A stretch of 64,000 nucleotides of DNA from an uncultured Bacteroidota bacterium (GTDB taxonomy: Bacteria; Bacteroidota; Bacteroidia; Chitinophagales; LD1): contig CAISWS010000119.1 of NCBI GenBank assembly GCA_903889265.1, positions 4,615 through 68,614 on the forward strand. Reading direction: 5' to 3'. The notes beneath the pieces were generated by a model. That model searched no databases, was not told the origin of the DNA, and saw nothing but the letters and a program-made list of their open reading frames with translations. Of the stretch, positions 20,171 to 57,016 are shown piece by piece. How positions within the stretch are numbered: the stretch's first letter is position 1; each line of letters opens with the position of its first letter. Both the position numbers and the translations under genes were made by a program.

Positions 20171-21247
20171 TTACTTCTCTTTCTTCTTCGCCTCGTTAAT
20201 GCCTGCCATAAAATCGTTCCACGATTTTTTCTTGTAAACATCATCACCATAAAAGGTGACAATATTTTTAAGCGACCCCGCCGGGAGGTAAAACGGAATT
20301 GCATCCACTATATTCATACTCTCATCAAGTATTACCATCGTGGGCAAAGTAAAGCTGTTGCGGCAAAGCGTAATAGCCAGCTGATGAAACGGCGCCTGTG
20401 GTGTACGTGCATTAGAAAAAGTCTGCCCTTTAAAAGTAATAGCATCCGTTATCTCGGGGTTAAAATCCACCAGGTCGTATTTGTCAGTAACATATTTCTC
20501 AACCGTGGTATCTATAAAAGATGACCGCTGCATTACCCGGCAGGCGTTACACCACTCCGTATGTATCAGCACAAGGGTTTTCTTCTTGGATGTTTCTTTG
20601 TTATTAAACGCTTCAACCGGTGTCTTCCATTTAATTTCTTTCAGTCTGCGTTCAGTGGCAGTATCAGAAAACGCAACGTCATAGCCTGCCTTAAAATCAT
20701 CATAGCTCGAATTCCGGAAGGCATTCTCCAGCGTAAAAACCAGTATCGGCTCAAATTTGGTATTATCCAGGTAGCCCTGGGCCAGCATGCTAAAGCTAAA
20801 TTCGTCTTTCTTTTTATCGTAGTTGTTTAAAAACATGGTGGTAGGGTACATCAACTTATTTTGCAGCAATTTTATGGCCAGTGCATTTGTGGCACCCCTG
20901 CCAGTACCCACCGGCCCGTATTTTTCGCCCAGGTACTCAATCGTATCTTTTGTTTCTGCATTAAATTTTACAGGGTAAAAGTTATTGTTGATGTATCCGG
21001 CAAGGTCCGGATTGGCATAAGTAGTTTTCATCATCTGTTTGCACCATCCGCACCAGTCGGTGTAAAAGTCCATGATAATGGGGCGTGGCTGTGTTTTTTC
21101 CTTCTCCATCGCCTCCTGCAGGGTCATCCATTTCACATAACTTCCTTCGGCATCTGCCTGTAAAGGCGCCTGTTGTTGTGCCCTAACCAAACAAGGAAAC
21201 AATAAGCCTGTGCAAATAGCAGTATATAGTAATGTTTTCCGTAGCAT
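20171..21247 (-). CDS. secreted protein with two thioredoxin-like domains
   Basis: 358 aa. Signal peptide, then two CxxC sites in Trx-like context (DWCGWCKQM and EWCNACRVM). Confidence 0.75.
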   Translation of the reverse strand: MLRKTLLYTAICTGLLFPCLVRAQQQAPLQADAEGSYVKWMTLQEAMEKEKTQPRPIIMDFYTDWCGWCKQMMKTTYANPDLAGYINNNFYPVKFNAETKDTIEYLGEKYGPVGTGRGATNALAIKLLQNKLMYPTTMFLNNYDKKKDEFSFSMLAQGYLDNTKFEPILVFTLENAFRNSSYDDFKAGYDVAFSDTATERRLKEIKWKTPVEAFNNKETSKKKTLVLIHTEWCNACRVMQRSSFIDTTVEKYVTDKYDLVDFNPEITDAITFKGQTFSNARTPQAPFHQLAITLCRNSFTLPTMVILDESMNIVDAIPFYLPAGSLKNIVTFYGDDVYKKKSWNDFMAGINEAKKKEK

Positions 21248-21353
21248 GCTTACAAATTTAAAAGAATGGGCGATTTGACCCGGAAAATGATTTCGATATT
21301 TAACTTTCTAAAACAAATTATCTCCCCTTTCCTGATGCCAATAACCAGCCTGG

Positions 21354-22271
21354 TTATTTCACCACAGGGCTTTCATTGTTCATTCCGAGGTACCTTAAAA
21401 ACCCCGATATAAAATCAAAAATGCTATTCATACCCTCAAAATTTATTTTGGCTGCCACATCCGACGCCCGGTGATAATCCTGGTGCGTACCCGTGGTAAA
21501 ATGCAGCAAAGGAACACGCAAAGCCTCCAAATATTTCAGGTCCGAAAACTCAATATTGGAGTCATCTGATCTGAAATGTAGTTTATCATTATCATGAGCC
21601 CAAATGTTTTTCACCAATACAGAATCGTTTGAAAATACCCCCACCCTGAGCATTCTGCTCAAAGTATCCAAACGCCCTACCATATCAAAATTCATAACTA
21701 AAGCCAGGCGCATACTATCAGCAAAACCAGAACGCACAAAATATTCCGAACCAAATAAACCCTCCTCATGTGCCGATGGAAAAAACGCTATTACATTAAA
21801 AGGCAATTCCTTTTGGCCTGACAAATATCTGGTCAGCTCCATTACCATGGCAACCCCACTTGCATTATCATCTGCCCCGGGATGCACCATATTTTTATGA
21901 GAAAAATCCAGGGCTTTGGATGAGCCCATACCCAAATGGTCGTAATGCGCCATCAGAATGATGGTCTGCCTTTTGCGCCTGTTAAGGACACCGATAACAT
22001 TGGTTGCTGGATGCCGGGTGGATGAATCAACCGGATAGGTGAATTGCTGATGCGTAACTATGGCCTTGCACTGCTTACTCAAAAAGTTGCCGATATATCC
22101 GGCAGCTTTTTGCTCATCATCAGTCCCCGCCGCCCTGCCATGTAAGGATTCGGATGCCAAAAAAATGATGTGCTCTTTAAACCCGACCTGCGCATTTACC
22201 GCCAGATTAAAGAAAAGCAGAACCCAAATGCTTAACGCCACTGCCCCGTTAAGGCCAGTTATAAAATACAT
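21354..22271 (-). CDS. M28 family metallopeptidase (aminopeptidase)
   Basis: 305 aa. AHYDHLG...GADDNASGVAMVMEL...HEEGLFGS...DYHRASD zinc-ligand pattern of the M28 family. Its start codon overlaps the stop of the upstream collagen-like gene (TAATG). Confidence 0.85.
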   Translation of the reverse strand: MYFITGLNGAVALSIWVLLFFNLAVNAQVGFKEHIIFLASESLHGRAAGTDDEQKAAGYIGNFLSKQCKAIVTHQQFTYPVDSSTRHPATNVIGVLNRRKRQTIILMAHYDHLGMGSSKALDFSHKNMVHPGADDNASGVAMVMELTRYLSGQKELPFNVIAFFPSAHEEGLFGSEYFVRSGFADSMRLALVMNFDMVGRLDTLSRMLRVGVFSNDSVLVKNIWAHDNDKLHFRSDDSNIEFSDLKYLEALRVPLLHFTTGTHQDYHRASDVAAKINFEGMNSIFDFISGFLRYLGMNNESPVVK

Positions 22272-24925
22272 TATTTGTTACTTGTGGTACCGGCTCCTTT
22301 GCCAATGCTCTTTTTAGTCATTTTCTTTTTAACCGTTGGCGCGCTTTTCTGCATATGAAAAACTGTTCCGGTCGGGCGGTCAAACCTAACCTTCTGTCCA
22401 TCCCACCATACCGGGTTGCCGGTGTGCTCCAAATCGCTTTCGTCAAACATCACACCCTTCATGTTGGCGTCAAAATTCTTATCAGCAAGGTCCGCCGGCA
22501 GGGCTGGTTTGTTGGCAGCATCAATTCTGTTGCCCACCGCAATCCAGGTAAATTGAATATTCGACTGCCCTCCTTTGTTTTCTTTTACTGTAAAGCCTGT
22601 TTTATCCATGCTTACAATAAACAGGCCGTTACTTTCGCCAATAGGAGTAACTGTAACATTAGGTGTTGCACCCAACATAGCTGCAAAAGAAGCATCAAAT
22701 TTCACTGTTGCGCTGCCATTTTGTAACGCAGCGTTACCATCACCATAAACCTTAACATCGGCCGAAGTTACACTAAAAGCAGCTACACGCTTATCACCGG
22801 CATCAACCAATTCTGCCTGGTAACCTGAAGTGTAAGAATTACCCAGGTTATAAGAGGCAAATAATTCGCCGCAATTAACCTGGCCCATTACAGCACCCCG
22901 GGTCCAGCTTCCTATAATACCACCCGTTCCACCCGAACCAATGCCATATACATTGCTTGATGGTAAAAAACCATTACCGCTGCCCGAAGTACCGGCGGTA
23001 TAATAAATACCATACAGTACATCATTTGCAGCTGTATAAGCTATGGCACCAAAAGTATTTGAAAGTGTAGTTGAACCCATAACTCCGCCACTTCGTGTTC
23101 CATACCCGGCAGAGCCATCATTATTTATTCCCCAAACCCCAAAATGGTACATCGCCCTTAAACTTGTAATAGTGGAGTTTATAGTATCCTGACCGTAAAG
23201 ACCGGCATCGGCATTTAAGTAATTGGTTCCTGCAGTTAATCCGTTCAGCTGAAAACCAACAGCCCCGGTAGAGCTTCCACTAAATGCCCCCCCACTACCT
23301 GCAGGTAAATAATAACCAAAAGTTAAGTCGTTGCCGATTGCAATCGCTGCGGTACCATTTGTATTACCGTTATAACCATCAAAACTGAAGCCACTTGATT
23401 GGGCTGTATAAGAAAAAATACCATCGCCTACATTAGTGCCCGCCGCAGCGTTGTTTGTTATATCCATGCCATCTGTTGCCGGATTGTTGCTCAATAAAAA
23501 CGCAGCCTGCCCACCAGCTGCCGCCGAATTGATAGCTACCAGCGCCGGATCACTTCCCCCAATACAATTGACTGCCAAAGGCACATTTGCCGCCGATGTG
23601 AAATATCCGGTAGGATTGCTTACAACTTCACCACTTATCGTCAATGTAGGGTTGATATAACCCAAGTAAGCATCTCCAAACGAACTGCCATTGGCGTGCA
23701 GCGCATATTGCCCCGTGGTAGTACTTGTTGTAGTAACATTTAACCCGCTAATGGCTGCACCCAGCACGGTCAGTTTTTCTGTGGTGGTAGCAACTGTTGT
23801 TCCACCCACAGGGCCCATAGCTACGTTAGTTCCGTTATCGTAAATATTAGTGGCTGTGGTTATCCAGGCTGGTATAGATGCATTATAATATGGCATCGTG
23901 AATACTCCCCCCGGTTGTAAAAATCCGGTTGCCCCCACAGCGCCTGTTGCACCAATCGCACCCGTAGCACCCTGTATACCCTGGCTACCTGTTATACCCT
24001 GAATGCCCTGCAAGCCGGTAGCACCAACGTCGCCCGTAATTCCATGAACTCCCTGAGCCCCGGTTACACCCGGTATACCTTGTGCCCCGGTAATACCCTG
24101 AACACCCTGATTTCCCTGATTGCCTTGTGCACCCGTTGCACCCTGTACGCCCTGGTTCCCCTGTGCACCGGTTATCCCTTGTATTCCCTGTGGACCGGTT
24201 GGGCCGGTTGCTCCGTTCAATCCGGTGGCACCTGGTGCACCTTGCGAGCCCGAAGCCGCATTAATACCCGGCGTTCCTTGTGGGCCCTGCGGACCAGTTG
24301 CGCCAATATCGCCCTGACTACCTGTTACTCCTTGTATCCCTTGTGCACCGGTTGGTCCGTCATTACCTTGTAAGCCCTGCGGCCCGGTAGGCCCCGCGAT
24401 GCCCGGAATACCCTGAAGGCCGGTAGGTCCGTCATTGCCTTGTAATCCTGTAGCGCCTTGTGGGCCTGTGGCTCCTGGTGCGCCTGGCTGCCCGGTTGCA
24501 CCCGGAGTGCCATTTGCCCCCGTAACACCTATTGGGCCTTGAGCCCCCGTTGCCCCGTTAACGCCAATGGTACCACTTGCGCCCGGTAAGCCCGGAGCTC
24601 CTGTTGCACCTGCGGGGCCTGTTATACCCGGATTACCCTGGGCACCTGTTGGCCCGGATAACTGGCACAGAGATACCCATGCCGTGTTATAATAAAAATA
24701 GCATCCTATATTGACATCATAAACCAATAACCCAACTGCAGGCGCAGCAATAGATGTTCTTTGCGCAGTAGTTAATCTGGGGGCCAAAAACCCTTTATTA
24801 TTTGAGGTAAGATCAAGAATTGCACTGGCATCAGGCGTTGTAGTACCGATACCAACATTCTGGTTCTGAGAAAATGCGTTTACCACTTGTAGCAGGAGGA
24901 ACGCAACTAGTAAATTCTTTTTCAT
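22271..24925 (-). CDS. secreted collagen-like (Gly-X-Y) repeat protein with large non-collagenous C-terminal domain
   Basis: 884 aa. Signal peptide, a conserved N-terminal module (NVGIGTTTP...PRLTTAQR...GLLVYD...GCYFYYN...SLCQ), about 240 aa of GXY triplets, then about 550 aa rich in Gly/Thr/Ala/Asn. Confidence 0.85.
23924..24655 (-). repeat. Gly-X-Y triplet (collagen-like) coding repeat tract
   Basis: Residues about 91-334 of the 884-aa protein are uninterrupted GXY triplets apart from one break (GINAASG). Mirror Pro-rich ORFs on the opposite strand are artefacts of this periodicity. Confidence 0.85.
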
Positions 24926-42176: not shown

Positions 42177-42208
42177 AAAATGCCGCTTGTTTTACGAAGC
42201 GGCATTTT
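42177..42208 (-). terminator. rho-independent terminator after the T9SS-associated gene string
   Basis: AAAATGCCGCTT-GTTTTACG-AAGCGGCATTTT. GC-rich 8-bp core stem, extendable to 12 bp by the flanking A and T runs, with a T-rich tract following on the minus strand. About 25 bp downstream of the OmpA-family stop. Confidence 0.7.
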
Positions 42209-42229
42209 AAAGTCTTTTCACACGGCAGC

Positions 42230-44365
42230 TTAGTTATGTGGCGCAGGAACCGTCTGCATAGCAGGCTGTCTCTTATCGTCCAGAATCTTAAATTCTGTTC
42301 TTCTGTTCTTTGCCCGTCCTTCAGGGTTATCCGACCCGTCAGGGTTTGTATTTGGCGCTACCGGCATGGTTTTACCGTATCCCTTGGCTATAATCCTGTC
42401 TTTGGCAATTCCTTTTTCGCTTACCAGGTAATTAGTACAGGCCTCTGCACGCTTCTGGCTTAATTCTTCGTTGTATTTATCCGCCCCTTTGCTATCTGTA
42501 TGGGCGCTCAACTCAATGGTAATAGTCGGGTTCTCTTTCAAAATGTCATATAGTGTATCTAACACCAGTTTTGATGCAGGTATCAGGTCGGCCTTATCAT
42601 ATTCGTAATAAATATTGCTTAACGAATATGCCTTATTCATCACCATCTTCTTCATGCTAACGGTAAAGCTGGCAGTATCACTTTTATCCTTGCCCAAAGT
42701 GTTGTAAAGCTGTGTCCCGGTAAAGTAGCCATCGCGCGCTGCGCTGATTTTGTACGACTTATCAGGCTCCAGGTCAAAGAAATAACTGCCGTCTTTCGAG
42801 TTGTAAGATTTTATCAGGGCACCGGTATTGGCATCATATAAATTCACCACCTGGTCCTTTACCACATTACCACTGTCTGGGTCAACCAGCTTACCCTTTA
42901 CCGCAAGGAATATGCGGTACCTGTACAGCTGATAAATATCATCGCAGCATGTTTCACTTTTTAAACCGTAACCACCGGGACGGTTACTTACTACAAAACC
43001 AATTCCGTTCTTCTCATCCCAGCTGTAATACATATCATCAACACTCGAGTTAACCGGCATGCCTAAGTTTTCAGGTTCACTCCAACCTCCATTCACCGGT
43101 TTAGTTTTGTACACATCTGCACCACCTATGTTAATGTGCCCGTCAGAACTGAAATACAAAGTATTGGTCTGTGCATCATAAACAGGCGTAAATTCATTTC
43201 CCTCGGTGTTAATGTTGCCGCTTATTTCGCGCGCTTTATCAAAAGTGCCATCACTGTTTAGTTTGGCATAAAATATATCCGTTCCGCGGCCTACATTTCT
43301 ATCTGAAACAAAGTAAAGCACATCTTCGCCCTTTTCATTTTTGCCTAAATTCGGCTGTGTATTGGTTGCACCTGCTGCATTTACGTTTTCGTTAAGCATA
43401 GTACCGGCAATCCAGCCTGTATCACCCAAAAGGCTCTTATAAATATTACATTTAATAGCCTGATTGTCATCCTGCAAACACTCAGTGTAATACATGGTTT
43501 TACCATTTGCACTAAAAGTAGGGTTACCTACATGATAAGCAATGGTATTAACCTCGCCTGCTAAAATTTGCTTTTTGGTCCAGGTTGAGTCGCTGTTCTT
43601 CTTTGCAGAGTAAATTCTGGAGAAGGTGGCAAACTTCTCTCTCTTGCCTGTTAAAATTACCTTGTCAGAAACCACTGCCGAAAAATATAACGTTGTTGGG
43701 TCCCTTAGCACCGGTGCATAATCAGTAAAGGGCTGGTTAACGTTGGTATCCAGGTGAACCAGTTTGGTTTCTTTAAACGTTTTATCATCGCGGAACTTAA
43801 TACCCAAATCGCAGCCTGCATCTTCCATGCTGGCTTTTTTTCTTACGTTAGCCAGGTCCGCCGAATTTTTATAGGTCTCGTTAAACTGTTCAAACAACAG
43901 CTTAGCCTTTTCATAATTGCCAATAAACTTTTCAGTTAACGCTAACTTATAAAGGGCCATCCAGTTACTGTGTTTGGCGGTATCCATGTCCACCAGCATT
44001 TTATAGTATTTGTTGGCACTACGGTAATCGCGTAACATAAAATTGCCATCAGCCATTTGCTGATATAAATTGGTCTCTTTCGGATTCTTCGCAATTGCAG
44101 CCTCATAATAATGAAGCCCGTTGTACAAACTTCCCTGTTCAAAAAGTTTGTCTCCAAACATTTTGTCCTTTTTCCAGCTTACAGAAAGAGGGTCTGGCAG
44201 CTCCTTTAATTTTTCCAGCTTTTTAGGTTTAGGTGCTTTAACCTTAACTGAGTCAACTACCTGGGCAACCTTTGTCGAATCCACTGCCTGTGCTTTCAGC
44301 TCATTTCCCGGTGTCAGTTGCAATGCCAGAAGCGCAACAACAAAAAGTAAAAATTTCAATTTCAT
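42230..44365 (-). CDS. PorE-like OmpA family protein (TPR + PD40/beta-propeller + CarboxypepD_reg-like + OmpA_C)
   Basis: 711 aa. Signal peptide, TPR-like N-terminus, repeated PD40-type segments (YFSSDG, YFVSDRN), and C-terminal OmpA_C (ELSAHTDSKGADKYNEELSQKRAEA...NRRTEFKIL). Confidence 0.8.
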   Translation of the reverse strand: MKLKFLLFVVALLALQLTPGNELKAQAVDSTKVAQVVDSVKVKAPKPKKLEKLKELPDPLSVSWKKDKMFGDKLFEQGSLYNGLHYYEAAIAKNPKETNLYQQMADGNFMLRDYRSANKYYKMLVDMDTAKHSNWMALYKLALTEKFIGNYEKAKLLFEQFNETYKNSADLANVRKKASMEDAGCDLGIKFRDDKTFKETKLVHLDTNVNQPFTDYAPVLRDPTTLYFSAVVSDKVILTGKREKFATFSRIYSAKKNSDSTWTKKQILAGEVNTIAYHVGNPTFSANGKTMYYTECLQDDNQAIKCNIYKSLLGDTGWIAGTMLNENVNAAGATNTQPNLGKNEKGEDVLYFVSDRNVGRGTDIFYAKLNSDGTFDKAREISGNINTEGNEFTPVYDAQTNTLYFSSDGHINIGGADVYKTKPVNGGWSEPENLGMPVNSSVDDMYYSWDEKNGIGFVVSNRPGGYGLKSETCCDDIYQLYRYRIFLAVKGKLVDPDSGNVVKDQVVNLYDANTGALIKSYNSKDGSYFFDLEPDKSYKISAARDGYFTGTQLYNTLGKDKSDTASFTVSMKKMVMNKAYSLSNIYYEYDKADLIPASKLVLDTLYDILKENPTITIELSAHTDSKGADKYNEELSQKRAEACTNYLVSEKGIAKDRIIAKGYGKTMPVAPNTNPDGSDNPEGRAKNRRTEFKILDDKRQPAMQTVPAPHN

Positions 44366-44477
44366 ATTCTGGGTTAAGGTTGTTTCAAAAACGTATTTAT
44401 GCCAATTGCATTCGAAAATAAAAAAAGGTTGCCGTTATATAAATATTGTTGTATTTAACATGTAAGCGCGCCGTATA

Positions 44478-45515
44478 TTAAAAACGCGGGCAAATCAACG
44501 CGCTCTTATAATTATAATTCTTTTTCTTGCCGGTATAGGTTAATGATAGTTCAAGCGCACCAATTGCAGTACCTGCGCTCTTTAGTTGAGATACCGTAGC
44601 ATCATAACTAATACCCAGTTTAAATCCTTTAACCTCAAAAGCCAGGTAAGGTATAACAGCATCGCCACCGGCACCGCCTTTGGCCAGGGTGTTAATACGG
44701 TTATATAATCCCAGCGTAAGCGTCATATCGTTATCAAAGTCGATACCAAAACCAAGTCCGCTGTTTAGTTCATCTACACCTCCCTGGTGCATATACATCA
44801 GCGATGGCAACAAGTGATATCTTTTTGCAATAGTAACATCAATACCAGCGTTAACATCCCATCTTAAATAAAGGTTGTTATTGTCTCCTGTAAGGATGTC
44901 GTACTTAGGTTGGTATAAATTAAACAAGGCACCGCCGGCATATATACCTATCACGTCACTTAAACGGCCATACCACAATAACCCCGCGTTTATGTTCGGA
45001 TAAAGTACATGCGTTTTACCTATATTTTCGTTGTTGCTGAGTGAGCTGTTGAAGATGTTATCCTGAAACTGGCTGGCAAACTGAAACCCGCCCGTATTGA
45101 TACTGGTATTGGTAATGCCCAACTGAAAGCCCGCCGATAAATGGTGATTTTTCTTTTTACCCAGCGTTTTGATATAGGAGGCAGAAGCGCAAACCATAAT
45201 GGTGCTAAAAGTGTTTGCACCGGCCTGGTCATTAGCCAGAAAAAGGCCTACACCAACAACATCGTCCTTTACCTTTATAGGAACATCACCACCAATGGCC
45301 GTAGTCATGTAAGGCGATGCGCCAAAACTACCGCCGCTGGCGCTAAACCATTGGTTACGGTAGTTTATACCAACCCGGTAAGTGCCCGGCGTAAAACCGG
45401 TTAATGCCGGATTAAGCAACAAGGGTGCATTAAAAAATTGCGAGTAGTGAATATCCTGCGCAAAAACGGATGCTGCTAAAACGAAGCTGAAAGCGAGGGT
45501 AAAAAATTTCTTCAT
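44478..45515 (-). CDS. PorP/SprF family type IX secretion system membrane protein
   Basis: 345 aa. N-terminus AQDIHYSQFFNAPLLLNPALTGF is the PorP/SprF hallmark. Confidence 0.85.
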   Translation of the reverse strand: MKKFFTLAFSFVLAASVFAQDIHYSQFFNAPLLLNPALTGFTPGTYRVGINYRNQWFSASGGSFGASPYMTTAIGGDVPIKVKDDVVGVGLFLANDQAGANTFSTIMVCASASYIKTLGKKKNHHLSAGFQLGITNTSINTGGFQFASQFQDNIFNSSLSNNENIGKTHVLYPNINAGLLWYGRLSDVIGIYAGGALFNLYQPKYDILTGDNNNLYLRWDVNAGIDVTIAKRYHLLPSLMYMHQGGVDELNSGLGFGIDFDNDMTLTLGLYNRINTLAKGGAGGDAVIPYLAFEVKGFKLGISYDATVSQLKSAGTAIGALELSLTYTGKKKNYNYKSALICPRF

Positions 45516-45556
45516 GTTTATAGTGTTGAGTCCTTAACTTATTAATTTTTTATTCC

Positions 45557-46873
45557 CTACCACAATAGGGCCAGATTTCCTGAAACTACTTTAACCACAC
45601 CGGTTTCATTAACCTTTACACTGGCAGTATATACATAGTTTCCCATAGGTTGCAGTTTGCCATTATATTTTCCATCCCAGCAGTAAGTAGGTGCCGCACC
45701 TGCAGTCGGTATTACCCTGGTATCGCCATCGCGGTTACCATCATAAACCAACTCACCCCAGCGGTCATAAATGCGCATTTCCTGTACGGTTACCAGCCCG
45801 TTTTCGTTAATAATGTGGAAGGTGTTATTGTTCACCTGGTCGCTGCCATTCGGCGCAAATACGTTAGGGAAAACAAAGTTTACTTCTTTCCAGTTAATCA
45901 GGGCATGTGGCTCATTACCATTATCTGTCCAATCGCTTTTCATCATTCGCATGGGCGGCGTGCCGTTGCTGGCCAATGGCATAACATCGCCTGCGCTATC
46001 CAGATTTTGCCATTGTGGCACTACCTGCCAGCGGGCCATGGAGTTCCAGCTTCCGTCAACAGCAGGGTCATAATAAATAGATAATGCCGCTGAAGCTGTA
46101 TTGTTGTATTGTTTCAATAAGTGATAATACTGGCCATTTACCTGTGTAATGATAGATGCCTTGGTTGCAGTATCATATCCATCGCTGGTAGGGTTTTCAT
46201 ATGCAAACCGTACTGAAAACGCCTGGCTGTCCGGTACTGATGGGCTGAACTCAACCGGTCTGTAAATAACTGTTCCACTGTTATCCCACCCTGTAGGGAA
46301 AAGGTAAGTGCTGGTGCTTTTGGTGCTTCTGAATAATCTGCCGGCACCGGTGCTGCTTACAAAACCTGTATTTCTGATAATGGCACCAGTGTCTGTATTC
46401 AGCACATAAAGATTAAAATTACCGGTAGCAGATTCGCAGCTGTTAATACTGTCAAGATGTAAAACCGTGGCATCCAGTGTCTGCGTTTTTACTGAACCGG
46501 GCGTATTCAGCGTAAGGTTATAAAAGGTAGTGGGCTGGGTACCGGTAATATTCTGGTTGGCACCGGTTAAAGATACCTCGCTCTGGTCAGCGGTAAACAG
46601 GTCATTGTTTTCCCAATCGCCGGTTACATAATAAACCCCGGTCGCAGCTCCCCCGCCGGTAGCTGTGCCACCATTGCGGAAATAACCATTAATCGTGGTA
46701 TAACCTGCATTGCTGTAAGTCCCGCTGGCGTTTTCTGCCGCGCCCTCTACATAAACCACCGCACCACCGGTTACGGTAATTTGCGCGCCTGCATTATATA
46801 ATACCTGGGCCTGTAACTGCCCAATGCTTAATAGGCCCATGGTTAACGCTGTAAAAAAAACTCCTGATTTCAT
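45557..46873 (-). CDS. T9SS type B sorting (gliding-motility-associated C-terminal) domain protein
   Basis: 438 aa. C-terminus FPNVFAPNGSDQVNNNTFHI...MRIYDRWGELVYDG...WDGKYNGKLQPMGNYVY matches the type B CTD. Confidence 0.8.
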   Translation of the reverse strand: MKSGVFFTALTMGLLSIGQLQAQVLYNAGAQITVTGGAVVYVEGAAENASGTYSNAGYTTINGYFRNGGTATGGGAATGVYYVTGDWENNDLFTADQSEVSLTGANQNITGTQPTTFYNLTLNTPGSVKTQTLDATVLHLDSINSCESATGNFNLYVLNTDTGAIIRNTGFVSSTGAGRLFRSTKSTSTYLFPTGWDNSGTVIYRPVEFSPSVPDSQAFSVRFAYENPTSDGYDTATKASIITQVNGQYYHLLKQYNNTASAALSIYYDPAVDGSWNSMARWQVVPQWQNLDSAGDVMPLASNGTPPMRMMKSDWTDNGNEPHALINWKEVNFVFPNVFAPNGSDQVNNNTFHIINENGLVTVQEMRIYDRWGELVYDGNRDGDTRVIPTAGAAPTYCWDGKYNGKLQPMGNYVYTASVKVNETGVVKVVSGNLALLW

Positions 46874-46905
46874 CTTTATAAGTTTATTAAAAACTGAACT
46901 TAATT

Positions 46906-47178
46906 TTATTTTGCCTTATACGTATCCTTTGCTGGGGTAAACTTAGCCATGCCTGGGGTCGAATTATCACCGGATTTCACATTATCCCGTTTTTGAGCTC
47001 CCTTATTTTTGCCGTCAAATTTTGCTCCGCCAACCACAGGTTGCACGTGGGTCTGCTTGTCCTCCGCTTGTTTGGCGGTACCCTTGGTTGTCGCCATACC
47101 CGGAGTTTCAGCACTTTGGCTAAATCCTTTTATGGCAAAAGCTAAAAATAAAAAAGGGAGCATTAATCTTTTCTTCAT
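46906..47178 (-). CDS. small Lys-rich secreted protein
   Basis: 90 aa. Signal peptide MKKRLMLPFLFLAFAIKGFSQ, TPGMA motif twice, low-complexity basic sequence. Tight spacing to both neighbours (22 and 32 bp). Confidence 0.45.
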   Translation of the reverse strand: MKKRLMLPFLFLAFAIKGFSQSAETPGMATTKGTAKQAEDKQTHVQPVVGGAKFDGKNKGAQKRDNVKSGDNSTPGMAKFTPAKDTYKAK

Positions 47179-47200
47179 CTACTCGGTTTTATTCAAAATG

Positions 47201-48319
47201 CTATTGTACAAATGCAGTTAAGGTTGCGTGATTAGGGGCATTGGTAGGGTCTATGGCCAATCCTGTTCCTCCTAATACTGCGCTTGAATAATATTGCACG
47301 GTTATAGTATTGGTCACATTCGGGGTTACTGTTACCATTTTAGTAATAGCCGAACTCCAGCCAAACAAGGTATAACCATCATAATCATCGGTAACACTCG
47401 ACATGGTAAAGCTTCCACCTACCGCTGTTCCGTTTACCAATATTTGAAAATAGGCAATGCCCGCAGCATTCTGTGTACCAAATCCGGATGCGGTAAACTC
47501 AACAAAAGTCTTACTCTGAGTTGGAACAATCGAAAGGGTTATTCCTGGTAAATTAGTAAAAGTAGTAGCATTCAGATTGGTATTCGCAGTCAAGGATATA
47601 GATTGTATGTTAAGGCCTGAGCCTGCACCGGTAGGGCCGGTTACACCTGCTGGCCCCGTAGCACCTGGAGTTCCTGCGGTACCTGGCGTTCCCGGAGTTC
47701 CGGCAACACCAGTTGGTCCGGCTATGCCCGGAGCACCATTAGCACCGGATGGACCAGTTACACCTGGCACTCCCTGAGGGCCGGTAGGGCCTGTTGATCC
47801 ATTTGCACCTGTTGGCCCTAAAGAGCCCGCTCCGCCAGGGCCTATTGGACCGGTAGGTCCCGTTGCACCGGTAGTTCCATCGGTGCCACTTGCCCCGGGA
47901 ACACCCTGCAAACCCGTAGCGCCGTCTGCACCCGATGGGCCCGTTACTCCATCATTACCTGATGGGCCGGTTACTCCATTCAATCCTGAAGGACCGGTTG
48001 CCCCCGGAGTACCTGCAGCACCTGTAGGTCCTGCTGGTCCGGCCTGGCACAACGAAATCCAAGCTGTGGAGTTGTAATAATAAAAGCATCCTAAGTTAGT
48101 ATCATAAACCAGCAAACCCTGTGCTGGCGAGGCAATGCCAGTGCGCTGTGCGGTAGTTAACCGCGGTACCAGCATCCCCTGGGTAGTTGACGTTACATCT
48201 AAAGCTGCCGAAGGGGCAGGTGTGGTGGTTCCTATGCCCACATTATTATTTTGGGCAAATGCGGGAACTGTGATTATTACTGCTAAAAACAGAAACAAAC
48301 CGGGGTAAATTCTTTTCAT
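47201..48319 (-). CDS. secreted collagen-like (Gly-X-Y) protein with globular C-terminal head, paralog 2
   Basis: 372 aa. Signal peptide, a conserved about 70-aa N-terminal Cys-containing module, about 140 aa of GXY, then about 140 aa of beta-rich C-terminal domain. Confidence 0.85.
   Translation of the reverse strand: MKRIYPGLFLFLAVIITVPAFAQNNNVGIGTTTPAPSAALDVTSTTQGMLVPRLTTAQRTGIASPAQGLLVYDTNLGCFYYYNSTAWISLCQAGPAGPTGAAGTPGATGPSGLNGVTGPSGNDGVTGPSGADGATGLQGVPGASGTDGTTGATGPTGPIGPGGAGSLGPTGANGSTGPTGPQGVPGVTGPSGANGAPGIAGPTGVAGTPGTPGTAGTPGATGPAGVTGPTGAGSGLNIQSISLTANTNLNATTFTNLPGITLSIVPTQSKTFVEFTASGFGTQNAAGIAYFQILVNGTAVGGSFTMSSVTDDYDGYTLFGWSSAITKMVTVTPNVTNTITVQYYSSAVLGGTGLAIDPTNAPNHATLTAFVQ
47621..48040 (-). 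repeat. Gly-X-Y triplet coding repeat tract
   Basis: Residues about 94-233 of the 372-aa protein. Register break at GPGGAGSLG. Antisense Pro-rich ORFs are artefacts. Confidence 0.85.
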
Positions 48320-48400
48320 AGTGCTTTTTTGTATGTCAGGAAACAGAGAGCCAATATAAAGGGAATTTTTAAATAACGTTAAGACTTTGTGCAGAAAACA
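48320..48400 (-). promoter_or_regulatory. duplicated upstream leader/promoter region of collagen-like paralog 2
   Basis: About 80 bp upstream of the start codon aligns by eye with 49657-49738 (…GAGAGCCAAT.TAAA.GGA.TTTT.AAATA.CGTTAA.ACTTTGTGCAGAAAACA). Confidence 0.4.
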
Positions 48401-48534
48401 TTACTTACTCACCGCCGGGATTAGTACCCGGTTAAAAAAAAACCTCACAGCTACGATATTTTTAACATAATTCATCTGGTTCTCGGCAAATCCCGTTTCT
48501 AAAAATCAGTCTTTACAACTTCAAATAATTATAC

Positions 48535-49656
48535 CTATTCATACACCATAATACACCGCTGGCTTTCGGGATCGGTTGTCACATTACAGTTGCATGCCCC
48601 CGTAAGGCCATCTGCCCAGCTAACCTGCCAATCAAGCCTGATGGTAACAGCAACCCCAGGTGTAACGGTCATGGGTGTTGATAAGGCAACGTTCCAGCTA
48701 GTGGTGGTGTATTGATTACCGCCGGTGTTAAACATACTGTTGGAAATTGAACCCGCCCCGGCCACAACAGCGGCACTCGTCACATTATATATTCTTACAC
48801 CCACATAACTTGGCACCCGCTTGGTAACGTCATTATAACCAGCTGCACTTGCGTTTATATAAACAACAGCTTTATTAGGTGTAAAGGTTAAAGTTGTTCC
48901 CGCCATGGCAGAATAAGTACTGGATGTAGTGGTAATATCAGTTGTGCCACAAATAGAAGCTCTCATTGGCGCTATATTAGTAGTAAGCGTGCCTCCCCCA
49001 TCGGTAATACTGAGGGCCCCTGAACCTGCGTTATAGGTAAATGCAGTATTAAATGAACCGGGGGCTGTAGCTCCCGTAGGCCCTTGTGCACCTGTTGCAC
49101 CTGCTATACCAGTGGCACCTGCAACACCCGCAACACCGCTTGGTCCGGCTGCACCTGTTGTGCCCTGCGGCCCTGTAGCGCCTGTTGGCCCAAACGAGCC
49201 TGCTCCACCAGGTCCGGTTGGTCCGGTTGCACCTGTAGCGCCGTTAATACCTATAGTGCCGCTTGCGCCTGCTGCACCCGAAGGGCCGGTTACCCCATCT
49301 ACACCTGAAGGCCCGGTAGCTCCGTTTGCTCCCGAAGGGCCCGACACTCCCGGCGCACCGGTCGGTCCGGCTGGCCCGGCCTGGCATAATGAAATCCAGG
49401 CGGTGGAATTATAATAGTAAAAGCAGCCCAGGTTAGTATCGTACACAAGCAAACCCTGTGCAGGCGAGGCAATTGCCGTGCGCTGAACTGTGGTTAACCT
49501 GGGTACCAGCATACCTTGCGTGGTTGAAGTTACATCTAATACTGCTGAAGGTGCAGGTGTGGTGGTTCCAATACCTACGTTATTATTTTGAGCAAAAAGC
49601 GGGGTGGTAACAATTAGCACAAAAAACAAGAACAAAAAAGGGTAAAATCTTTTCAT
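48535..49656 (-). CDS. secreted collagen-like (Gly-X-Y) protein with globular C-terminal head, paralog 3
   Basis: 373 aa. The first about 100 residues are nearly identical to paralog 2. About 100 aa of GXY, then an unrelated about 175-aa C-terminal domain containing Cys residues. Confidence 0.85.
49069..49377 (-). repeat. Gly-X-Y triplet coding repeat tract
   Basis: Residues about 94-196 of the 373-aa protein, with the same GPGGAGSFG register break as paralog 2. Confidence 0.85.
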
Positions 49657-49738
49657 AGTGTTTTTTAAAATTTATCAGAAACTGAGAGCCAATCTAAATG
49701 GATTTTTCAAATATCGTTAACACTTTGTGCAGAAAACA
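49657..49738 (-). promoter_or_regulatory. duplicated upstream leader/promoter region of collagen-like paralog 3
   Basis: Colinear with 48320-48400. Confidence 0.4.
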
Positions 49739-49910
49739 GTATTTCCACATGAATTCGGTTAGTAATTCGCCGAAAAAGCGCTCCCTGCAACGTATTTTTG
49801 CCTCAAATCACCTCATAAGCCAAAATATCCGCTGTTTAACTCATACTATGTTGTATGAAAGCCGGTTAGCCGGCATGGATATCTTTTAATCGTATTTAAA
49901 ATCAAACCTC

Positions 49911-50888
49911 ATGAACATGAAAACCCTGTTAATTGCCCCCTTTGCCTGCTTGCTTTTGCTTTCATCATGCCTGGTAACCAAAAAAAAATATGACGAGCAG
50001 GTTGCCCTGGCCAATAAATACCTGGCCGAAAAAAATGATTGCGGCGATAAACTAACCCAGGCCACGGCAACTATAGACGACCTCAATAAACAAATAGCCA
50101 ATCTGAATGATGAGATACAGAAGTTAAAAGACAACAACACCTCTTTAGAAGACAGGAACAAAAAACTGGCTGCCTTAAAAGATGAAACAGAAAGCATCTG
50201 CGCCAAAGTGAGAGAGAAGCTGGACGAGATAACCAACTCATCCGCCGCTGAGAAAAATAAATTGATGAAGGACCTTGCCGGAAAAGAAAAAGACCTGATG
50301 GCCAAAAGCGAAGAGCTGAATAAACTAAGCCACGACCTTGACGAGCGCGACGCTAAACTGCGCAACATGCAGGCGCTAATGGCCCGTAAAGATTCCGCCG
50401 TGCAGGCACTGAGGAAAAAACTGACTGATGCCCTGCTGGGATTCAATACGAGCGAGCTTTCCGTTTCGGTTAAAGACGGTAAGGTTTACGTATCTATGAG
50501 CGATAAACTATTGTTCAGCACGGGTAGCTTTAAAGTAGATGAGCGCGGTAAAGAGGCCCTTAAAAAAATAGCTGAAGTACTAAACAAGCAAACCGATATC
50601 AACATTAATATAGAAGGGCATACCGATAATAAGGCTTACGTATCAACCACCAGCAGCCCAATCAACAGCAACTGGGACCTCAGCGTTATGCGCGCCTCCT
50701 ACGTAACTAAAATTATGGTGGAAGATTACAGCGTTGACCCTACACGAATTATCCCTTCCGGCCGTAGCAAATTCTTCCCCGTTGAAAGTAACGATACCGC
50801 CGAAGGCCGTGGCAAAAACCGCCGCGTAGAAGTAATACTTGAGCCGGACATGAAAGCCATTATGGACATTCTGAATGGGGTTAATTGA
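49911..50888 (+). CDS. OmpA/MotB family lipoprotein with long coiled coil
   Basis: 325 aa. Lipobox LLLSSC, about 150 aa of heptad-like coiled coil, C-terminal OmpA_C (IEGHTDNKAY...NWDLSVMRA...NRRVEVIL). Confidence 0.85.
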   Translation: MNMKTLLIAPFACLLLLSSCLVTKKKYDEQVALANKYLAEKNDCGDKLTQATATIDDLNKQIANLNDEIQKLKDNNTSLEDRNKKLAALKDETESICAKVREKLDEITNSSAAEKNKLMKDLAGKEKDLMAKSEELNKLSHDLDERDAKLRNMQALMARKDSAVQALRKKLTDALLGFNTSELSVSVKDGKVYVSMSDKLLFSTGSFKVDERGKEALKKIAEVLNKQTDININIEGHTDNKAYVSTTSSPINSNWDLSVMRASYVTKIMVEDYSVDPTRIIPSGRSKFFPVESNDTAEGRGKNRRVEVILEPDMKAIMDILNGVN

Positions 50889-56563: not shown

Positions 56564-57016
56564 TTAATCCCATACATACCGCTCATCATATTCAACGCGG
56601 TATTTTTTCAGGAACGCACGGTATTCATCCTGGAATGTTTTTTTGGCGTGATGTTCTTTTTGGTTGGAGATATATTTTACAACCGTTTCAACTTCGGTGG
56701 GATTTACCGAGAATGCGCCATATCCATCCTGCCAATAAAAATCTTTAAAACCTTCACCTTTAAGCTTCATCCATTTAGATGAATGGGACTTTAGTTCCTC
56801 TAAAAGTTTTATAAGCGCAATCTTTTTTGATAACAGGCAAAGGATGTGAACGTGATCTTTATGGCCACCAATTTGGATTGGAAAGCAATCCAGTTTATTA
56901 CAAATACCGCCCAGGTAAGCATGTAAATCATCTGCCACCTTATCCGTTATAAGCGGCATCCGGTTTTTTGTGCTGAACACAATGTGCATGTAATTTTGAA
57001 CGAGCGATTGCGACAT
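56564..57016 (-). CDS. IS200/IS605-family Y1 (HUH) transposase, REP-associated tyrosine transposase (RAYT)-like
   Basis: 150 aa. NYMHIVFSTKNR N-terminus, HUH motif HKDHVHIL, and a catalytic Tyr region WQDGYGAFSV. Size and layout match TnpA_IS200/RAYT. Confidence 0.85.
   Translation of the reverse strand: MSQSLVQNYMHIVFSTKNRMPLITDKVADDLHAYLGGICNKLDCFPIQIGGHKDHVHILCLLSKKIALIKLLEELKSHSSKWMKLKGEGFKDFYWQDGYGAFSVNPTEVETVVKYISNQKEHHAKKTFQDEYRAFLKKYRVEYDERYVWD

Follow-up and report, generated by a model that had tools for sequence, protein, structure and literature searches.

How a secreted collagen-like fibre might leave the periplasm of a Bacteroidota cell, and to what it might then be attached, is the question raised by a string of six minus-strand genes in DNA from an uncultured Chitinophagales bacterium (GenBank assembly GCA_903889265.1, contig CAISWS010000119.1, positions 4,615 to 68,614; the whole stretch of 64,000 nucleotides is called the window here). 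The string joins a known type IX secretion system (T9SS) anchor cassette, made up of a type-B cargo gene (ctdB), a porP gene and a porE-like gene, to two genes (col3 and col2) of a common, uncharacterised fibre family, and this much is secure. We tentatively favour a reading in which the fibres are functionally coupled to cargo of the ctdB type, which in the simplest case would serve them as a surface dock and might also be their T9SS carrier. Such cargo becomes a candidate for the dock because its genes adjoin fibre genes in several unrelated Bacteroidota, and the locus names both a candidate partner, the ctdB-type cargo, and a candidate anchor, PorP together with a PorE-like peptidoglycan binder.

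Fibre genes upstream of a T9SS type-B cassette

The genes of the string and the signals around them are as follows.

Upstream region of col3: 49657-49800, minus strand; conserved, promoter-like or like a 5' untranslated region
col3: 48535-49656, minus strand; 373 aa, Sec-exported collagen-like fibre protein
Upstream region of col2: 48320-48463, minus strand; conserved, with boxes as in the col3 upstream region
col2: 47201-48319, minus strand; 372 aa, tandem duplicate of col3, likewise a Sec-exported collagen-like fibre protein
K90: 46906-47178, minus strand; 90 aa, small secreted basic protein
ctdB: 45557-46873, minus strand; 438 aa, T9SS cargo with a C-terminal domain (CTD) of type B and an all-beta passenger domain
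porP: 44478-45515, minus strand; 345 aa, PorP/SprF-family outer-membrane shuttle cognate to ctdB
porE-like gene: 42230-44365, minus strand; 711 aa, PorE-like TPR/beta-propeller/CRD/OmpA_C protein
Terminator-like hairpin: 42177-42208; closes the string, 12-bp stem with 5 G-C, T/A runs flanking both strands

The open reading frame coordinates and the hairpin scan bear out a preliminary description of this DNA in its six minus-strand genes, their sizes and gaps, and the terminator at the 3' end. From col3 to the porE-like gene the intergenic gaps are 215, 22, 32, 41 and 112 bp, and all six proteins start with a signal peptide that has a Gln near the predicted cleavage site, a pattern common in Bacteroidota among proteins cleaved by signal peptidase I. 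The hairpin is the sole strong terminator-like site of the string, the terminator scan having found none between its genes; the accompanying sigma-70 promoter scan was discarded as not meaningful for Bacteroidota promoters, and the terminator part alone was kept. Since the gaps between col2 and the porE-like gene hold no terminator-like site and, in all of them, no strict Bacteroidota-type TAnnTTTG box, a single col2-K90-ctdB-porP-porE transcript running from the col2 upstream region to the hairpin is plausible. The upstream regions of col2 and col3 are nearly identical over about 110 nt, and one set of boxes, TGTGGAAGTA..GTTTTCTG.ACAAAG and TTTA[TG]ATTGG, lies 5' of each fibre gene; those ahead of the col genes agree with TAnnTTTG at 7 of 8 positions. 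They are kept in orthologous loci (L099, L088, L089, L004, L007 and L132; comparison loci are cited by such numbers) though the proteins there are only about 56-88% identical, and may represent a promoter or a regulator site common to these genes.

The ctdB-porP-porE-like triad fits an already described type of T9SS operon. The CTD of ctdB (residues 335-436; 45566-45871) scores 36.4 bits against TIGR04131, a small margin over the cutoff of 35, and 37.3 bits against PF13585 CHU_C (cutoff 27), and homologues of the protein bear the same type-B label; ctdB thus has the two marks of type-B cargo, a sorting domain above cutoff and a porP-like gene, here 41 bp downstream. PorP reaches 129.4 bits against PF11751 (cutoff 22.3) and 152.4 bits against TIGR03519 (cutoff 90.55), over residues 1-327, and its gene lies directly 3' of ctdB in every orthologous locus whose sequence continues. 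With matches above the Pfam and NCBIfam cutoffs, the type-B CTD and PorP/SprF identities first proposed for the two genes hold.

The PorE layout proposed for the 711-aa protein stands in part. OmpA_C (71 bits) and PD40 (38.9 bits) clear their cutoffs, and the TPR (about 19 bits) and CRD (CarboxypepD_reg, 27.5 bits against a cutoff of 32.3) parts fall short of theirs, in the expected order; the equivalog cutoffs are missed, with 304.8 bits against 600 for NF052230 (T9SS_PorE) and 332.4 against 620 for NF053607 (CHU_0125_OmpA). Its signal peptide has no lipobox Cys (N terminus MKLKFLLFVVALLALQLTPGNELKAQAVD). PorE is described as a lipoprotein (PMC7192894) with the domain order TPR/WD40-type propeller/CRD/OmpA_C (PMC12773672), and we rejected the identification of the window protein with PorE itself and regard it as a PorE-like paralog, because it lacks the lipoprotein Cys and reaches about half of the equivalog cutoff. 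In Porphyromonas gingivalis a PG1035-PorP-PorE complex is found, and anchoring of type-B cargo by PorP-like partners has been proposed (PMC9143113). Flavobacterium johnsoniae has five operons that combine a PorE homologue, a type-B substrate and an SprF-like protein, and Fjoh_3952-3951-3950 is a proposed static wall-anchored complex (PMC12618676). The preliminary description had not recognised its combination of genes as a described system; this does not hold for the triad, which is a known operon type, and does hold for the pairing of collagen-like proteins with T9SS anchors, which appears to be undescribed, since literature searches found no paper joining collagen-like proteins with PorP-type anchors of the T9SS.

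The ctdB passenger belongs to a family conserved among its homologues and is modelled by AlphaFold2 as an all-beta domain at a confidence (pLDDT) of 88. No function can be read from it, as this confident fold is without a match: a fold search of the ctdB model against the PDB gave nothing at E <= 0.001, the ctdB profile had no significant match among PDB sequences, viral structures matched the CTD and not the passenger, and Pfam and NCBIfam gave no enzyme-like family match in the passenger. Some homologues (P0142-P0147) carry the same passenger with a type-A CTD (PF18962) in place of type B; the passenger domain has thus been swapped between the two T9SS targeting routes. In one metagenome-assembled genome (MAG; L005 1854-7887) the ctdB-porP pair stands directly after gldL-gldM-gldN-gldM-gldN, with gldM-gldN duplicated, an order that places a ctdB ortholog next to T9SS core motor genes.

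Col3 and col2 share one plan. In col3, a signal peptide ending AQ|NNN is followed by an N-terminal module (about residues 23-92), a Gly-X-Y stalk (49066-49377) and a 176-aa head; in col2 the module lies at 48044-48253, the stalk at 47621-48040 and the head at 47204-47620. Over the first 92 residues the two are about 96% identical; their heads, members of a single family, share 23% identity. Collagen (PF01391, cutoff 27.2) matches col3 with 53 bits, col2 with 67 and col1, a third and unlinked paralog, with 127; in unbroken runs of at least 8 they have 34, 46 and 81 Gly-X-Y triplets, respectively. No T9SS CTD of either type was found in the full proteins (Pfam and NCBIfam, E <= 0.01), nor, with Pfam at E <= 10, in the isolated col2 and col3 heads or full-length col1, and PF18962 and PF13585 are absent from all of the 120 best full-length col2 homologues (0/120), 11 of which bear Peptidase_S74 at the C-terminal end. 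The earlier reading that the collagen-like proteins carry Sec signal peptides and lack an obvious T9SS CTD holds, and more than 120 checked members of the fibre family are free of a T9SS signal.

The col2 head was modelled by AlphaFold2 as a monomer (pLDDT 87.8) and in this model has a TNF/C1q-like jelly-roll fold. Foldseek matched it to the following structures, the top ones being trimeric lectins; BC2L-C, PLTL, C1QL1-3, BclA and Bd2734 all came out at a probability of 1.00.

BC2L-C N-terminal lectin (2wq4): E = 4.8e-7, probability 1.00, template modelling (TM) score 0.62-0.72
Photorhabdus TNF-like lectin PLTL (9ib7): E = 5.3e-6
Chlamydial Pgp3 (4jdo, 4jdn): E = 3.8e-5
C1q-like domains including C1QL1-3 (4qpy and others): E about 1e-4
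BclA (3tyj): E = 1.7e-4
Bdellovibrio fibre tip Bd2734 (8okw): E = 3.4e-4

The BclA-type hair layout proposed earlier (N-terminal module, Gly-X-Y stalk, beta-rich head) is therefore supported at the level of fold, by matches of the head model to BclA, C1q and TNF-like lectins. At the level of families the Collagen model matched, and C1q/BclA_C-like and T9SS CTD models did not; the isolated col2 and col3 heads matched no Pfam family, C1q- and BclA-type included, at E <= 10. Col2 and col3 would be homotrimeric fibres with a collagen triple-helix stalk, and their jelly-roll heads may, judging from the model, be glycan-binding lectin adhesins.

The N-terminal module carries the Pfam label PF26696 'PTL_trimer' on col3 and on identical and related proteins. 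The label is a precomputed annotation, and we also tested the module with our own hidden Markov model (HMM), which matches all three window paralogs at E 1e-34 to 5e-39 (col3 5e-39, col1 1e-34). Literature searches found no mention of the name 'PTL_trimer', and the module profile had no significant match among PDB sequences. At E <= 0.001 it finds 76,017 representative clusters; a protein can hold up to 28 copies of the module, and protein lengths run to 6,840 aa. Of ten module proteins that were scanned, not one has a T9SS CTD; the domains that they bear are YadA-head repeats, the S74 fibre chaperone, DUF2793 or Kelch. The idea that the module is special to the T9SS locus thus has to be given up: it is found in about 76,000 clusters, is often multicopy, and occurs in phage fibre proteins too. 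In predicted phage contigs (IMG/VR L103, L109, L120 and L121) it is placed at the very C terminus of proteins that measure 720-1550 aa and lack a signal peptide, often followed by a gene for about 120 aa, and its presence in T4-like cyanophages means that it is not restricted to Bacteroidota (phages with the module: S-RIM12, Syn33, P-SSM4 and Leptolyngbya phage Lbo-JY46). The fibre family is common and often without linked T9SS genes.

Linkage of fibre genes and ctdB across lineages

In nine related lineages (the window, L087/L099, L088, L089, L004/L091, L007, L131, L132 and L092) one or two fibre genes lie between ctdB and a divergent gene for a coiled-coil OmpA protein, with ctdB identity to the window ranging from 100% down to 52%. 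Copy number and order of the fibre genes vary and their position is kept; the heads are of the col2 type, the col3 type, a third type or, in L089, the S74 type. Eight of the nine have the porE-like gene, and the ninth, L092, ends within ctdB. Genes identical to those of the window are carried on metagenome-assembly contigs, and the nearest genomes are Chitinophagales MAGs.

The linkage recurs outside this clade. Proteins of about 410-605 aa with a passenger homologous to that of ctdB (hhalign probability 99.8%, E = 4e-29) are encoded next to fibre genes, in the same orientation, in three independent settings, L009, L013 and L134, at distances of 2, 15, 45 and about 205 nt. The shortest of these gaps, 2 nt, is in L009. 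In L013, whose two pairs stand in the order ctdB-like, fibre, ctdB-like, a further three fibre genes lie upstream; L134, which was chosen from the fibre side, also has two pairs, in the order ctdB-like, fibre-S74, ctdB-like, fibre, small gene. Neither PorP nor PorE was found beside these pairs (by search in L009 and L013, by precomputed Pfam labels in L134), which argues that the PorP/PorE-like anchor is not obligatory in the pairing. In a census of 80 species-representative loci anchored on any type-B CTD, mostly generic type-B cargo that served as background, a fibre gene lay within 10 kb in 3/8 loci with a ctdB-like passenger and in 1/72 of the others (Fisher p = 0.0026). A different kind of neighbour is seen in L101, where a giant SprB/PKD type-B protein is encoded directly upstream of the fibre gene. 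The co-occurrence suggested for this neighbourhood is thus kept in nine lineages and found again in L009, L013 and L134; elsewhere fibre genes and ctdB-porP pairs often stand apart.

The small gene K90 has a signal peptide, and after cleavage it contains 12 Lys among 70 residues, with an isoelectric point (pI) of 9.8; it matched no family in Pfam, NCBIfam or PHROG and is probably disordered. A small gene for a signal-peptide protein (80-131 aa) likewise directly follows the fibre genes in L099, L004, L100, L101, L102, L131, L132 and L134, and the distance from fibre gene to small gene is 6-22 nt across many unrelated loci. Coordinates are given below.

Window: 46906-47178
L100: 8206-8448
L101: 8111-8389
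L102: 8447-8773 and 10087-10419
L134: 9240-9635
L131: 6721-6990
L132: 6668-6967

Most of the small proteins are basic and seem disordered, the L102 pair being different and apparently folded. We rejected homology among them, the likeness being limited to signal peptides and composition. The preliminary description listed the Lys-rich gene as one of the six of the string; comparison with L100, L101 and L102 indicates that it travels with the fibre genes and not with those of the T9SS. Such genes are also present in loci without any T9SS genes, and K90 belongs with the fibres because the small gene follows fibre genes and not T9SS genes. Fibre gene and small gene may form a conserved two-gene unit.

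The third paralog lies far from the string:

col1: 22271-24925, minus strand; 884 aa, fibre protein with no T9SS neighbours

Its C-terminal region of 548 aa is rich in Gly, Ser and Thr and closes with a Lys-rich tail (22271-22400; 8 Lys in the last 38 residues, pI 11.3) resembling the separate small basic proteins in composition. Downstream (20171-22271, minus strand) follow an M28 peptidase gene that begins in overlap with the col1 stop, then one for a protein of two thioredoxin-like domains, and a thioredoxin-like gene is also found among the fibre genes of L013 (8745-9683). As the fibre module has two conserved Cys, thioredoxin-like genes near fibre genes point to a possible link with disulfide formation.

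On its other side the string is flanked by the divergent coiled-coil OmpA_C gene (49911-50888, plus strand, 325 aa). In almost every orthologous locus this gene is the neighbour of ctdB or of fibre genes, and TatC and RpiB follow farther out; its product may be a second peptidoglycan-binding partner, or the gene may simply be syntenic. About 7 kb from the locus lies an IS200-like Y1 transposase gene (56564-57016, minus strand, 150 aa; PF01797, 89 bits), and the same gene stands at the edge of the orthologous contig L001.

What the linkage may mean

In the arrangement that we favour, and by analogy with known type-B operons, ctdB would be exported by Sec, translocated by the T9SS through its type-B CTD and handed to its cognate PorP/SprF-family shuttle, which the PorE-like OmpA_C protein would tie to peptidoglycan, giving a static wall-anchored complex. 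Col3 and col2 would be exported by Sec as homotrimeric fibres, accompanied by the small basic K90. The ctdB passenger would bind the conserved N-terminal module of the fibres and so act as their surface dock, and it may in addition bring them across by way of the T9SS pore; the variable heads would then be displayed as glycan-binding adhesins. A surface location of the fibres and a contact between them and ctdB are both predicted by this arrangement. If the coupling is real, the role of the T9SS would widen from single CTD-tagged proteins to the exporting or docking of partner proteins, and lectin-headed fibres would be indicated as a modular adhesion system in environmental Chitinophagales.

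Several points weigh against the proposed coupling. The contact between ctdB and fibre is something we infer from gene linkage, and we are aware of no described example in which the T9SS transports a protein that lacks a CTD. Col2 and col3 each have their own conserved upstream boxes, and col3 is for this reason probably a transcription unit of its own. Seven distant lineages (L005, L006, L008, L094/L095, L096, L097 and L133) have ctdB, usually with porP, and there no fibre gene was found within 7-10 kb and no porE-like gene, which means that the evidence from the clade may count only once; its nine lineages may all stem from one insertion into a stretch that is syntenic in general. Loci that lack fibre genes keep the OmpA-TatC-RpiB flank as well. 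Furthermore, the fibre genes of col1, L100 and L102 have no ctdB, PorP or PorE neighbour, and the census is small, with one of its three positive loci in the window's own clade.

Much of this would follow if the two sets of genes were neighbours and nothing more, which we regard as doubtful on balance and still a considerable possibility. A variable fibre cassette would then have landed upstream of an unrelated T9SS type-B operon, and the fibres, expressed from their own promoters, would take a route independent of ctdB, PorP and PorE to the surface, the extracellular matrix or the periplasm. The boxes at each fibre gene fit this well, as does the variation in fibre gene number, order and head type among orthologous loci; so do the size of the family, whose 76,017 clusters are frequently without T9SS neighbours (col1, L100 and L102 among them), the existence of ctdB-porP pairs without fibre genes, and the attachment of the small basic gene to fibre rather than T9SS genes. 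Mere neighbourhood is harder to reconcile with ctdB-like proteins standing independently beside fibre genes in L009, L013 and L134 at very short gaps, with the enrichment in the 80-locus census (p = 0.0026), with an adjacency retained down to 52% ctdB identity, and with the lack of any obvious promoter box or terminator from col2 to the porE-like gene. Were it nevertheless correct, the locus would be an ordinary T9SS cassette beside an ordinary member of a common fibre family.

A fully specified form of the coupling, in which a dedicated ctdB-like adaptor, from a family of small type-B CTD proteins about 410-450 aa long, binds the fibre module in the periplasm, takes the fibre through the T9SS as a hitchhiker and docks it to the wall by way of PorP and the PorE-like protein, is in our view unlikely as a complete account; if true, such hitchhiker secretion would explain how a huge fibre family without a known outer-membrane export signal arrives at the surface. 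Rather less probable still is a coupling without a dock. Here the ctdB-like protein and the fibres would be co-regulated parts of one surface structure or matrix, or ctdB would be a chaperone, processing factor or cross-linker, and the PorP/PorE-like anchor would serve ctdB alone. The same linkage that suggests a dock suggests this too, and the pairs in L009, L013 and L134 without adjacent PorP or PorE, along with the confident yet unmatched fold of the ctdB passenger, agree with it; the lack of an enzyme-like family match in the passenger speaks against it.

That the collagen-like genes come from a prophage, as tail-fibre genes either left behind or still active, and do not encode cellular surface proteins, is very improbable, and we rejected it: PHROG tail-fibre families do match the proteins, the module does occur in IMG/VR contigs and T4-like cyanophages and related fibres do bear S74, an intramolecular chaperone domain that phage fibres typically have, but the PHROG matches fall almost wholly within the Gly-X-Y repeats, the three window proteins have Sec signal peptides and an N-terminal module where the phage proteins have no signal peptide and a C-terminal one, the locus is syntenic across many lineages, and no phage gene is among the annotated flanks of the window or orthologous loci, except that a small gene downstream of the string, at a distance of about 2.5 kb, has a Pfam label of the holin family.

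Comparison with known systems

The T9SS operons that combine type-B cargo, PorP/SprF and PorE have the same gene order as ctdB-porP-porE-like, and the window cargo CTD and PorP also reach the curated cutoffs. By analogy, the window cassette would be expected to form a static, peptidoglycan-tethered surface complex like theirs. It differs from them in its OmpA protein, which reaches about half of the PorE cutoff and has no lipoprotein Cys, in a cargo passenger from an uncharacterised family, and in the collagen-like fibre genes upstream on the same strand.

Among collagen-like adhesins, Scl1/Scl2 of Streptococcus and Lcl of Legionella have a trimerising, ligand-binding globular domain. The corresponding NCBIfam models (NF038329, NF038330 and NF046116) score 45-66 bits on the window proteins against cutoffs of 325-500, in the Gly-X-Y region only, and membership in these families was rejected for scores far under the equivalog cutoffs; the window fibres have neither an LPXTG anchor nor the DUF1566-type C-terminal domain of Lcl. 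Proteins of the Lcl type are found in Bacteroidota too (PMC11162425).

BclA and the C1q/TNF trimers combine, as do the window fibres, a Gly-X-Y stalk with a C-terminal jelly-roll head of about 135-175 aa. The heads match BclA in fold and not at the level of sequence families, bacterial TNF-like lectins being closer to them than BclA is. Unlike the Bacillus that makes BclA, the window host is Gram-negative, and to our knowledge the N-terminal module of the window fibres is unrelated to the exosporium-targeting region of BclA. Phage tail fibres with collagen repeats resemble the window fibres in being trimeric and in joining a conserved attachment part to variable tips, and the S74 chaperone also ends sister fibres in L089, L100 and L134; the window proteins differ from them in their signal peptide, their N-terminal module and their syntenic chromosomal locus, where no phage structural or replication genes are found among the annotated genes.

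The closest overall analogue of the window fibres is the set of mosaic adhesive trimer (MAT) fibres of Bdellovibrio bacteriovorus. These have a signal peptide, a conserved N-terminal beta-rich domain, a trimeric fibre and swapped tips, which include S74-chaperone and TNF-like lectin types, and there are multiple paralogs per genome (PMC10769870). Bd2734 and the col2 head both match BC2L-C (2WQ4) and C1QL (4QPY). The MAT stalk is a beta-helix or meandering fibre, and that of the window proteins is a predicted collagen triple helix; no sequence relation of the N-terminal domains was found, no direct test of the MAT domain having been made, and neither the MAT N-terminal domain nor the window module has a PDB homologue. 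MAT fibres are located at the surface, and the dock of their conserved N-terminal domain is unidentified (PMC10769870). They thus share with the window fibres the same question of a surface dock, in another phylum and with other secretion machinery, and it is in the window that gene linkage gives a candidate for one.

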